Part shown: in pieces, positions 319 to 32,030 of the stretch | Layout: every line of letters begins with the position of its first letter | Numbering within the stretch: position 1 is the first letter of the stretch | Source: a virus | Taxonomy: Duplodnaviria > Heunggongvirae > Uroviricota > Caudoviricetes | DNA length: 32,030 nucleotides | Virus record (IMG/VR): IMGVR_UViG_2778261510_000008 | Reading direction: 5' to 3' (one strand) | The notes under the pieces: model-generated | What the model saw: only the letters and a program-made list of their open reading frames with translations | Told to the model about the DNA's origin: nothing | Databases searched by the model: none | Position numbers and translations under genes: made by a program

Positions 319-477
319 GAATATTTTTTGGTAAGCGTCAAATATGCGCGTTCTGGCTGTGCGTAGCCGGAACCTGTGGGAGCACGATGCCGATAAGTGA
401 AAGGCATCGTGCTATGAAGGAGGATTCTATCGATGTGGTCAATGGAAGACGGTTACCAGAGATAGGGCTTATGCATA

Positions 478-504: not shown

Positions 505-583
505 TAGGGTGTCACCAGTAGGGGCTTTCAACGGTACAATGCGGGTTTGAGCGGCATAAATTACCACTGAAAGCCCTTAAACG

Positions 584-1597
584 TTACTCTACTGTGGACA
601 CTATGTGGACACTCTCGGCCTCAGTACCACCTCTTAGCGGATTAAGAGAAATGGCGTCCTGAAGGTACTCTGGCGCAAAATGAGCGTAAACCATAGTTTG
701 CTCAATCCGCGTGTGACCTAGTATCCGTTGTAGCGTGATAATACTTCCTCCATTAATCATGAAATGAGTGGCAAAGCTGTGCCTTAGTGCATGTGTGGCT
801 TGCCCCATTGGCAAATCCGGTTTTATTGCTTTCATTGTTCGTCTGAAGCGAGGGTAATCAGCATCAGGGAATAAAAAACCTCGTTTGTTATCCGCGATCA
901 TTTTGGCAACAGCCTCTGAGATCGGGACGGTGCGTGGTTTGTTTGTTTTCGTTTTAACAAACGTGACGCGGTTATGGATGATATTTTCTGCTTTCAAACG
1001 AGCTGCTTCTCCCCAACGTGCTCCAGTACTCAGGCAAAGAATCGCAATCTTTTTGTTGTCGCCGTCAAGAGCAGCAAGCAGTAAGGCAATTTCTTCCTGC
1101 GTGAGATAGCCTGTGTCTGGTTTTTCCTCCTTAAGCCTTTTTGTCCCTCTGATAGGGTGCTCACCAAAGAATAACTCCGCTTCAATCAGGGCTGTAAACA
1201 TGCCGCTAATACATGTTAAATCACGATTGATACTCGAAGGTTTAATACCCTGACTTCTTCGGGTGGCGCAGTACTGGCTGATAAGCGATTTCGTAATTTG
1301 AAATGCGCATGGGTCATTCGTTATTTTTGTGAAGATTTCAATTTTTCCAAGATTAGATTTCCCATGCTCTTCGTGTTTACCCTTTAAATCCCACCAGATC
1401 TGTGTCAGCTCCGACAGACGTCGCTTGTCTGTTGGTTTTGATAGCCATTCTTTATTGTGGTGGTTGTACAACGTGTATTTCTCGAAAGCGACAGCTTCGC
1501 TTTTCTTATCAAACTTCCTACGGATGCGTTTTCCATTACGTCCAGTAGGGCGGATGTCCACTTCATATCGACCATCATCGAGTTTTTTGATTGCCAT
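584..1597 (-). CDS. int: Tyrosine integrase, P2 Int-like
   Basis: 337-aa ORF next to att core; C-terminal H-x-x-R...Y catalytic region (HALRHSFATH ... TMVYAHF); SD ggaggg upstream of ATG. Confidence 0.9.
   Translation of the reverse strand: MAIKKLDDGRYEVDIRPTGRNGKRIRRKFDKKSEAVAFEKYTLYNHHNKEWLSKPTDKRRLSELTQIWWDLKGKHEEHGKSNLGKIEIFTKITNDPCAFQITKSLISQYCATRRSQGIKPSSINRDLTCISGMFTALIEAELFFGEHPIRGTKRLKEEKPDTGYLTQEEIALLLAALDGDNKKIAILCLSTGARWGEAARLKAENIIHNRVTFVKTKTNKPRTVPISEAVAKMIADNKRGFLFPDADYPRFRRTMKAIKPDLPMGQATHALRHSFATHFMINGGSIITLQRILGHTRIEQTMVYAHFAPEYLQDAISLNPLRGGTEAESVHIVSTVE
593..612. promoter_or_regulatory. Tandem direct repeats TGTGGACAC (593..601 and 604..612), candidate Int arm-type binding sites in the P' arm
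   Basis: Two perfect 9-mers with 11-bp period, inside the 3' end of int and ~90 bp from the att core; related TGTGG(T/A)C pair at 30449..30467 on the other arm. Confidence 0.5.
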
Positions 1598-23793: not shown

Positions 23794-24984
23794 ATGAGTG
23801 ACTATCATCACGGCGTGCAGGTGCTGGAGATTAACGACGGCACCCGCGTCATTTCCACCGTATCCACCGCCATTGTCGGCATGGTCTGCACGGCCAGCGA
23901 TGCGGATGCGGAAATCTTCCCCCTCAATAAACCGGTGCTGATTACCAATGTGCAGAGCGCAATTGCAAAGGCCGGTAAAAAAGGCACGCTGGCGGCGTCG
24001 TTGCAGGCCATCGCTGACCAGTCAAAACCGGTCACCGTAGTCGTGCGTGTGGAAGACGGCACCGGCGACGACGAAGAAACGAAACTCGCGCAGACTGTTT
24101 CCAATATCATCGGTACCACCGACGAAAACGGTCAGTACACCGGACTGAAAGCCCTGCTGGCGGCGGAGTCGGTAACCGGTGTTAAACCGCGTATTCTCGG
24201 TGTGCCGGGACTGGACACCAAAGAGGTGGCTGTTGCACTGGCATCAGTCTGTCAGAAGCTGCGCGCTTTCGGGTATATCAGCGCATGGGGCTGTAAAACC
24301 ATTTCCGAGGTGAAAGCCTACCGCCAGAATTTCAGCCAGCGTGAGCTGATGGTCATCTGGCCGGATTTCCTCGCATGGGATACGGTCACCAGTACCACCT
24401 CCACCGCGTATGCCACCGCCCGTGCGCTGGGTCTGCGCGCTAAAATCGACCAGGAGCAGGGCTGGCATAAAACGCTGTCCAACGTCGGGGTGAACGGTGT
24501 TACCGGCATCAGCGCATCTGTATTCTGGGATTTGCAGGAGTCCGGCACCGATGCTGACCTGCTGAACGAGGCAGGCGTCACAACGCTGATTCGCCGCGAC
24601 GGTTTCCGCTTCTGGGGTAACCGTACCTGCTCTGATGACCCGCTGTTCCTCTTTGAAAACTACACCCGCACCGCGCAGGTGCTGGCCGACACGATGGCTG
24701 AGGCGCACATGTGGGCGGTGGACAAGCCCATCACCGCAACGCTGATTCGCGACATCGTTGACGGCATCAATGCCAAATTCCGTGAGCTGAAAACAAATGG
24801 CTATATCGTGGATGCGACCTGCTGGTTCAGCGAAGAATCCAACGATGCGGAAACCCTCAAGGCCGGAAAACTGTATATCGACTACGACTATACCCCGGTG
24901 CCTCCTCTTGAAAACCTGACCCTGCGCCAGCGTATTACCGATAAATACCTGGCGAATCTGGTCACCTCGGTTAACAGCAATTAA
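23794..24984 (+). CDS. FI: Tail sheath protein, P2 gpFI-like
   Basis: 396-aa ORF, size and order. Confidence 0.9.
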   Translation: MSDYHHGVQVLEINDGTRVISTVSTAIVGMVCTASDADAEIFPLNKPVLITNVQSAIAKAGKKGTLAASLQAIADQSKPVTVVVRVEDGTGDDEETKLAQTVSNIIGTTDENGQYTGLKALLAAESVTGVKPRILGVPGLDTKEVAVALASVCQKLRAFGYISAWGCKTISEVKAYRQNFSQRELMVIWPDFLAWDTVTSTTSTAYATARALGLRAKIDQEQGWHKTLSNVGVNGVTGISASVFWDLQESGTDADLLNEAGVTTLIRRDGFRFWGNRTCSDDPLFLFENYTRTAQVLADTMAEAHMWAVDKPITATLIRDIVDGINAKFRELKTNGYIVDATCWFSEESNDAETLKAGKLYIDYDYTPVPPLENLTLRQRITDKYLANLVTSVNSN

Positions 24985-30096: not shown

Positions 30097-30177
30097 TGTT
30101 TTTATTTTATCTGTTTGTTTTATAAGGATAAATTAACTAAAATGGCACCATCAACAAAACCGGAAGAGGTGCTCGCG

Positions 30178-30396
30178 ATGTTTCATTGTCCTTTATGCCA
30201 GCATGCCGCACATGCGCGTACAAGCCGCTATATCACTGACACGACAAAAGAGCGTTATCACCAGTGTCAGAACGTGAATTGCAGCGCCACGTTCATCACT
30301 TATGAGTCGGTACAGCGATACATCGTGAAGCCGGGAGAAGTCCACGCCGTAAGACCGCACCCGTTGCCGTCAGGGCAGCAAATTATGTGGATGTAA
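30178..30396 (+). CDS. ogr: Late gene transcription activator Ogr (zinc finger)
   Basis: 72 aa from ATG at 30178 (MFHCPLCQH...); cysteine pairs CPLC and CQNVNC; last phage gene before attR. Confidence 0.85.
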   Translation: MFHCPLCQHAAHARTSRYITDTTKERYHQCQNVNCSATFITYESVQRYIVKPGEVHAVRPHPLPSGQQIMWM

Positions 30397-30417
30397 TTAC
30401 AAACAGGAAGCCCCTCA

Positions 30418-30443
30418 GTCGAGGGGCTTTTTTGTCGATGTGG
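30418..30443 (+). terminator. Rho-independent terminator after ogr
   Basis: aagcccctc-agtc-gaggggctt hairpin followed by a T-run. Confidence 0.75.
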
Positions 30444-30497
30444 TCAATGTGTGGACGTGACCAGAAATAAATCCTTTTATTTCATTGTATTACGCGT

Positions 30498-30524
30498 AAA
30501 AAATAAGCCCGTGTAAGGGAGATT
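30498..30524. repeat. attR core, 27-bp direct repeat of attL
   Basis: Identical to 478..504; overlaps the 3' terminator end of cyaR. Confidence 0.85.
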
Positions 30525-30584
30525 ACACAGGCTAAGGAGGTGGTTCCTGGTACAGCTAGCATTTTATGGGTTATGTTTTTCAGC
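30498..30584 (-). ncRNA. cyaR: CyaR (RyeE) Hfq-dependent sRNA; its 3' end is the P2 integration target
   Basis: Minus-strand sequence GCTGAAAAACATAACCCATAAAATGCTAGCTGTACCAGGAACCACCTCCTTAGCC... ending in a hairpin plus U-run matches recalled CyaR; candidate -10 (30592..30597) and CRP-like site TGTGA-N6-TCTAA (30619..30634) upstream. Confidence 0.75.
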
Positions 30585-30668
30585 GAAACGGATGATAACC
30601 TTAATAAATGCAGCTGTATGTGATCGGTTTCTAAGAATTTTCCATCCGGGAAAAATAATCGAAATTAA

Positions 30669-32030
30669 TCACTTACCGTGGGGATTACGCGTGGTTTCCC
30701 CGGAGAAATTACGCATCAGCAGCGCGTAATTGAGCTCAAGATCCTGCGGGACCGGGAGCCACACAGTATAACCATCGCCTGGTGCTATCGGCATAGCTTC
30801 GCCTTTGGCGTTTTCCATGTGCTCAAGGGTAAAATTAATGTTGCCTTGCGGCGTCATCAGCTCAAGGCTGTCGCCAACGGAGAATTTATTTTTCACCGCT
30901 ACCGCCGCGAGGTCCCCCTTGCGCTCACCGGTAAACTCACCAACAAACTGCTGGCGGTCAGAAACTGAATAACCGTATTCGTAGTTCTGATAATCGTCGT
31001 GAGTATGACGACGCAGGAAACCTTCGGTATAGCCACGATGCGCCAGACCTTCCAGAGTTTCCAGCAGGCTGGTATCGAACGGTTTTCCCGCAGCGGCGTC
31101 ATCGATAGCTTTGCGGTAAACCTGTGCGGTGCGTGCACAATAGTAGAAAGATTTGGTACGACCTTCGATTTTCAGCGAATGCACGCCCATTTTGGTCAGG
31201 CGTTCTACATGGGCGATGGCGCGCAGATCTTTCGAGTTCATGATGTAAGTGCCGTGCTCATCTTCAAACGCGGTCATATACTCGCCCGGACGCTGGGCCT
31301 CTTCGATCATAAACACTTTGTCGGTTGGTGCGCCGATACCCAGCGTCGGCTCAACATTTTGCACCGGAATCGGCTCGTACTTGTGTACGATGTTGCCAAC
31401 ATCATCTTCTTTCCCTTCCTGGACGTTGTACTCCCAGCGGCAGGCGTTGGTGCAGGTGCCCTGGTTCGGGTCGCGCTTGTTGATATAGCCAGAGAGCAGG
31501 CAGCGACCGGAGTAGGCCATGCACAGCGCGCCGTGAACGAAGATCTCGATCTCCATATCCGGCACCTGATTGCGGATCTCTTCAATCTCTTCCAGCGACA
31601 GCTCGCGAGAGAGGATCACGCGGGTCAGGCCCATTTGCTGCCAGAATTTCACCGTCGCCCAGTTCACGGCGTTAGCCTGCACCGAAAGGTGGATCGGCAT
31701 TTCAGGGAAGTGCTCACGCACCAGCATAATCAGCCCTGGATCGGACATAATCAGCGCATCCGGCCCCATTTCCACCACCGGTTTCAGGTCACGGATAAAG
31801 GTTTTCAGCTTGGCGTTGTGCGGTGCAATGTTGACCACGACATAAAACTTTTTCCCCAGCGCGTGGGCTTCATTGATGCCGAGCTGAAGATTTTCGTGGT
31901 TGAATTCGTTGTTGCGCACACGCAGGGAATAACGCGGCTGGCCCGCATAAACAGCATCTGCGCCATAAGCGAAAGCGTAACGCATATTTTTCAGCGTTCC
32001 CGCCGGGGAAAGGAGTTCCGGTTTAAACAT
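30669..32030 (-). CDS. yegQ: Peptidase U32-family protein YegQ (complete; start codon at the window edge)
   Basis: 453-aa ORF MFKPELLSPAGTLKNMRYAFAYGADAVYAG... recalled as E. coli YegQ; lies beyond cyaR outside the prophage. Confidence 0.75.
   Translation of the reverse strand: MFKPELLSPAGTLKNMRYAFAYGADAVYAGQPRYSLRVRNNEFNHENLQLGINEAHALGKKFYVVVNIAPHNAKLKTFIRDLKPVVEMGPDALIMSDPGLIMLVREHFPEMPIHLSVQANAVNWATVKFWQQMGLTRVILSRELSLEEIEEIRNQVPDMEIEIFVHGALCMAYSGRCLLSGYINKRDPNQGTCTNACRWEYNVQEGKEDDVGNIVHKYEPIPVQNVEPTLGIGAPTDKVFMIEEAQRPGEYMTAFEDEHGTYIMNSKDLRAIAHVERLTKMGVHSLKIEGRTKSFYYCARTAQVYRKAIDDAAAGKPFDTSLLETLEGLAHRGYTEGFLRRHTHDDYQNYEYGYSVSDRQQFVGEFTGERKGDLAAVAVKNKFSVGDSLELMTPQGNINFTLEHMENAKGEAMPIAPGDGYTVWLPVPQDLELNYALLMRNFSGETTRNPHGK

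Follow-up and report, generated by a model that had tools for sequence, protein, structure and literature searches.

Arm-type and core-type DNA are bridged by heterobivalent tyrosine integrases, of which that of phage lambda is the textbook case: its arm sites (P1, P2 and P'1-P'3) are connected with the core via IHF-induced bends, while an excisionase sets the directionality of recombination. P2-type phages differ from lambda in having an unrelated arm word, four sites rather than five, Cox in place of Xis/Fis and another arrangement of accessory sites. The Int arm sites in P2 attP have reportedly been footprinted, in work said to be that of Yu and Haggard-Ljungquist (J Bacteriol 1993). In P2-type phages, direct repeats with the consensus tgTGGaCa flank the core on both sides, and arm sites have been split into a tgTGGaCa group and a tgccGCCActt group (PMC3448106). 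They are recognised by the Int N-terminal domain, in which the discriminating residues are likely Y/W, D/E and R/Y (PMC3448106), while Cox promotes excision and blocks integration (PMC3936717). Here, we describe the corresponding repeats in a 32,030-nucleotide stretch of viral DNA (IMG/VR record IMGVR_UViG_2778261510_000008), referred to below as the window.

Paired direct repeats at the junctions of a P2 prophage

Judged by sequence comparison, the window is a complete P2 prophage at the E. coli yegR/cyaR site (locH). Its positions 478-1700 and 30100-30524 align to P2 (AF063097) with 99.3% and 96.9% identity, respectively, and the host genes yegR (1-318, + strand) and yegQ (30669-32030, − strand) occupy its left and right ends. 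The CyaR/RyeE sRNA gene, cyaR, was located at 30501-30586 on the − strand (Rfam RF00112, 100.7 bits, E = 3.1e-19). The 3' end of this gene, its terminator, is the attachment core and is overlapped by the attR core copy. The 27-bp core AAAAAATAAGCCCGTGTAAGGGAGATT is found at 478-504 (attL copy, + strand), where it corresponds to the P2 attP core feature (24356-24383), and, by alignment to P2, at 30498-30524 (attR copy, + strand). The run of A residues with which the core starts comprises 7 A at attL (477-483) and 6 A at attR (30498-30503); this one-base difference between the junctions falls at the edge of the 27-bp core or immediately outside it. Table 2 of PMC3032704 lists cyaR as an insertion site of P2-type prophages and of the K-12 ogr-D' remnant; in the literature searched for locH or cyaR in connection with P2, this insertion-site table was the only mention found. 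The P' arm region described below is present at at least 95% identity in 763 of 5426 complete E. coli genomes (~14%), indicating that the element is commonplace.

Within the gene for the 337-aa tyrosine integrase (int, 584-1597, − strand), which ends in ...ESVHIVSTVE*, two perfect direct copies of TGTGGACAC are located at 593-601 and 604-612 (593-612, + strand) with a start-to-start distance of 11 bp, and both words are identical to those of P2. The exact repeat spans 10 nt, TGTGGACACT (593-602 and 604-613), and this pair is the sole direct repeat of at least 8 nt with a spacing of at most 14 in the 32-kb window. Given the coordinates and the end of int, the repeats cover codons 329-335, in agreement with an earlier note on this DNA that had described two perfect copies with an 11-bp period in the last int codons. 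The sole difference of the P' arm from P2 is spacer base 603, which is A here and G in P2 and gives Int residue I332 here versus T332 in P2.

A second pair, formed by TGTGGTCA at 30439-30446 and TGTGGACG at 30450-30457 (30439-30457, + strand), lies in non-coding DNA on the other side of the prophage. It has the same 11-bp period and orientation as the first pair, and its words are also identical to P2. Upstream of it are ogr (30178-30396, + strand) and, directly adjoining, the ogr rho-independent terminator (30407-30430). The earlier note had read the strings of this pair correctly but had placed them at 30449..30467, which is 10 nt too far right, whereas the arm-to-core distances of about 90 and 40 bp that it gave agree with the measured 88 bp (504 to 593) and 40 bp (30457 to 30498).

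To place these repeats on the known attachment site, the protein_bind features of P2 (AF063097 / NC_001895) were transferred to the window by gap-free alignment. On the basis of the GenBank annotation and this alignment, the 'Int, P arm' feature (P2 24293-24320) corresponds to window 30435-30462 and the IHF feature (24324-24357) to 30466-30499, while the Cox feature (24399-24472) corresponds to 521-594 and the 'Int, P' arm' feature (24470-24496), which is overlapped by the int CDS in the P2 record, to 592-618 (all on the + strand). The window repeats at 593-612 and 30439-30457 fall inside the two annotated Int arm features, and the arm words (TGTGGACA twice, TGTGGTCA and TGTGGACG) match the consensus tgTGGaCa. 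Identical words within annotated features indicate the known P2 Int arm site pair, split by integration into attL (B-O-P') and attR (P-O-B'). Our main reading, to which we give a probability of roughly 95% from sequence evidence, is that 593-612 represents the P' arm and 30439-30457 the P arm, both being arm-type sites of the P2 integrase that are now divided between attL and attR; no finding spoke against this identification. Thus, the proposal in the earlier note that arm-type Int sites lie on both sides of a P2-like core was right but not new, as these sites are already known and annotated in the reference genome.

Homology places the accessory sites as they are in P2, IHF lying between P arm and core and Cox between core and P' arm sites. 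The Cox region shows 100% identity to P2. In the IHF region the left part is conserved, while five substitutions relative to P2 (30485, 30487 and 30492-30494; 5 of 13 positions) are found near the core, and these might give the P arm complex a slightly different geometry from that of P2. The part nearest the core, 30485-30494, reads tttcattgtattacgcgt here and tttcaatttattgtacgt in P2; the version in the window is common to other prophages at locH (loci L021 and L022), and its start, tttcattg, also occurs in a host sequence of Escherichia sp. MOD1-EC7003 described below. Compared with P2 attP, the window therefore has the same arm words, period, orientation, core distances and core, and it differs by the spacer base, by these five substitutions and by being in the integrated state at cyaR/locH.

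The first repeat adjoins the Cox footprint annotated in P2 (window 521-594), and Cox boxes and C repressor operators likewise consist of direct repeats whose period is close to a helical turn; this raises the question of whether the repeats serve one of these phage regulators and not Int. However, the Cox-box consensus TTAAA(G/C)NC(A/C) is unlike TGTGGACA, and so is the direct repeat GTTTAGAT of the switch region, which we take to be the C operator. Moreover, the P2 record gives both 24470-24496 and 24293-24320 to Int, and the word goes with the type of integrase, P2 or 186, being common to phages with similar Int N-termini. Sites for Cox or C are thus a very unlikely account of the repeats.

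Pairing, spacing and conservation of the arm words

Short G/T-rich words could recur near the junctions by chance. In keeping with this, single TGTGGACAC-like 9-mers with one mismatch allowed were found 7 times in the window, where 7.07 were expected. By contrast, the spaced pattern TGTGGNCNNNNTGTGGNC was matched at just two places in the window, one on each side of the core and each a perfect match on the + strand, while shuffles gave an expectation of 0.21 in the window even with one mismatch allowed. With single words at chance level, it is the pairing and the placement that exceed chance, not the word itself. The C/cox switch region also holds a near-match, TGTGGGCAC (2067-2075), next to the GTTTAGAT direct repeats. 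It was rejected as an arm site, since it stands alone, no second copy lying 11 bp away, and such hits occur at the chance rate.

Six of six reference P2-type phages carry the pairs, although among the compared phages Int is only ~50% identical and the cores are unrelated; the paired words are kept with the 11-bp period. The P arm and P' arm read TGTGGACGctaTGTGGACA and TGTGGACActaTGTGGACA in fiAA91-ss and L-413C, TGTGGTCAatgTGTGGACG and TATGGACGcatTATGGACA in D8, and TGTAGTCAaaaTGTAGACG and TGTAGACAagaTGTAGACA in SEN5, respectively. In 705R2 the P' arm reads GATGGACAgttTATGGACA and no P arm was seen, the record being cut at the prophage end, and Yersinia phage vB_YpM_476B also has a pair. L-413C and fiAA91-ss (W-phi-type), D8 and SEN5 resemble the window in that each arm holds two direct repeats 11 bp apart, those of the P' arm being located at the int 3' end and those of the P arm past the ogr terminator, but they differ from it by unrelated cores and host targets, and the pair may sit just outside int. 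The P' pair of vB_YpM_476B, TGTGGACAcaaTGTGGACA, is located at reverse-complement 91-109 of its locus (L010), where the int stop is at 686. The pair is ~580 bp away from int and the gap holds an extra annotated ORF, so that in this phage the arm sites and int have been separated by inserted cargo.

As negative controls, the two 186-type phages (186 and PSP3) were searched for TGTGGACA-type pairs, and none were found (0 of 2). The 186 record (NC_001317) annotates another arm consensus, YAYCGCCAYTY. Phage 186 is similar to the P2 type in that direct repeats of the arm type flank its core on either side, accompanied by IHF sites and an array for the excisionase (Apl), but it differs in using another word, 3 + 2 sites, and the Int recognition residues W/E/Y versus Y/D/R. 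Assignment of the window repeats to the 186-type arm sites (YAYCGCCAYTY or tgccGCCActt) was rejected, since they are of the TGTGGACA type and have no match to those words.

The comparison was then widened to 56 distinct P2-type Int loci from IMG/VR viral contigs, with 379,636 nt from the same loci as a control. An 11-bp-period pair was found at the int 3' end in 53 of the 56 distinct P2-type Ints, while 0 pairs were found in the control, a contrast which, together with the restriction of the paired pattern to the two arms of the window, makes chance recurrence an extremely improbable explanation. Of the three loci lacking a pair, one has an Int truncated where the contig ends, another lies on a contig that goes no further than the int stop codon, and the third encodes a 362-aa Int. 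Together with the reference phages, this sample bears out the conservation in related phages by which the earlier note had proposed to check its idea.

Given that the repeat in the window lies wholly inside int codons 329-335, it could alternatively be a by-product of coding, namely a peptide duplication (V-H-I / V-S-T) at the Int C-terminus with no role at the DNA level. The sampled loci argue against this. Whereas the pair lies inside int in the case of 335-337-aa Ints, it is located 0-2 nt past the stop, outside any coding sequence, in the case of 327-aa Ints, and it is also non-coding in fiAA91-ss and L-413C. Across the loci the spacer varies (CTG, CTA, CGA, TTG, CAG, CAT, TTA, TAA, GCG and GTT) while the 8-mers are fixed, and in the window the varying spacer base alters a residue, I332 versus T in P2, without any change in the words. 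Furthermore, the second pair of the word sits in non-coding DNA beside ogr. A free 3-nt spacer, fixed 8-mers and a place that is kept inside or outside int indicate a constraint on DNA and not on protein, and we regard the by-product explanation as having next to no chance of being correct. The reading as Int arm-type sites is consistent with such a constraint.

SEN5 (L008) departs from the other phages in the word itself. All four of its arm words (TGTAGTCA, TGTAGACG and TGTAGACA twice; reverse-complement ~505-525 and 703-721) carry a change of G4 to A, and the N-terminal domain of its Int carries a change of R16 to W (VDVWP versus VDIRP). From the sequences, the site change and R16W are consistent with co-evolution of the site and its reader, and the two changes together may represent a natural specificity-swap experiment.

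Integrase domains and the proposed working of the sites

The first 70 aa of the window Int are identical to those of P2 Int. Pfam assigned residues 57-156 of the window Int to Int_N (core-binding region) and 164-308 to Phage_integrase (catalytic). Since the Pfam domains start at 57, the first ~56 residues are left as the small, separate domain for arm binding. Alignment of the Int N-termini gave GRYEVDIRP in the P2 type versus GGWICELYP in 186, matching the discriminating residues of PMC3448106, at which PSP3 Int likewise differs from the P2 type.

By analogy with the described systems, the heterobivalent Int would use its small N-terminal domain on the direct TGTGGACA-like arm repeats, while its core-binding and catalytic domains would act on inverted core-type sites within the 27-bp core. 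With the words 11 bp apart, which is about one helical turn, two Int N-domains per pair would be positioned on the same side of the helix. A bend made by IHF, sitting between the P arm sites and the core, would bring the arm-bound Int within reach of the core. Cox would occupy the DNA from the core towards the P' arm sites, where it would shape attL for excision and inhibit integration. During excision, the attL (B-O-P') and attR (P-O-B') halves would be brought together again. This mechanism is established for P2/lambda-type integrases, and sequence identity suggests that Int binds these sites in the present strain as well.

A P arm-like fossil in the host flank

Host DNA next to the attL core also contains a P arm-like and IHF site-like stretch, at 431-476 (+ strand, beginning with tcgaTGTGGTCAatgGAAGACGgttaccagagata), which we refer to as the fossil. 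It includes an intact TGTGGTCA at 434-441 and a degenerate second copy, GGAAGACG, at 445-452. The degenerate pair that the earlier note had seen in the left flank is therefore real, but it is not part of the recombination site of the prophage: it belongs to host yegR-cyaR intergenic DNA that is also present at prophage-free sites. The yegR-to-core sequence was found in 5418 of 5426 complete E. coli genomes, and in 5001 of these at least 80% of the 620-nt query was matched. Most of the sampled matches stop at the last base of the core (504), and no integrase follows. Strain NT1F31, one of the genomes inspected, has yegR, the core/cyaR region and yegQ, and no prophage. The fossil is found in prophage-free sites of both E. 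coli and Shigella (loci including L003 and L023).

Aligned with the P arm/IHF region of the phage, the fossil has 38 identical columns, a score reached by 0 of 2000 shuffles. The unoccupied site of Escherichia sp. MOD1-EC7003 (L025, 590-660) holds a full-length version with an IHF-like ataaatccttctgtttcattg, in which 46 of 66 columns are identical to the phage P arm/IHF region (again 0 of 2000 shuffles). On these alignments, homology of the fossil to the phage P arm/IHF region is well supported. Kluyvera and Enterobacter sites with an identical core carry unrelated sequence at the position of the fossil, in a scan that required an exact 31-mer and thus took in those species in which the cyaR terminator has not diverged (as it has, for example, in Salmonella, E. 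albertii and E. fergusonii).

A phage origin was also considered for the remainder of the left flank (319-477) and rejected, as a distant blastn search against phages gave only records with the same chromosomal junction and noise. Just upstream of the fossil, the host flank contains a perfect 11-bp inverted repeat at 381-413 (agcacgatgcc ... ggcatcgtgct, with an 11-nt loop). Its position is like that of the ogr terminator hairpin upstream of the real P arm, and it is not followed by a T-run.

The E. coli S17-1 locus (a K-12 derivative; L004, 2930-3640) shows the fossil in a nested arrangement: the fossil P arm is followed by the first 18 nt of the core, then by a D' fragment and ogrK, and lastly by an intact P arm (TGTGGTCAatgTGTGGACG), the full core and cyaR. 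This order indicates that a later P2-like prophage inserted next to the fossil and subsequently suffered a deletion running from the attL core into gene D. As judged from its layout, the S17-1 locus is a record of two generations of P2-like scars.

The simplest reading of the Escherichia locH site is that of a remnant of an old attR. We are doubtful about the fuller proposal, which appears unlikely as a whole: that the fossil is an ancient attR scar (P arm, IHF site and core of a decayed P2-like prophage) which became fixed in Escherichia and which, with its TGTGGTCA word 36 bp from the core, would render locH functionally attR-like if bound by Int.

Taken together, these results show that arm-type integrase sites are recoverable by a reader from sequence alone, and they fix the attL/attR anatomy of the prophage at its target, cyaR, as P' arm, Cox region, core, IHF site and P arm. 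Should Int still bind the fossil word, locH might, speculatively, be a weak attR-like partner and not a simple attB. Each new attL formed at locH would then be a pseudo-attP in which the core joins the fossil P arm to the P' arm, and the fossil could affect site preference, integration efficiency or excision at locH.
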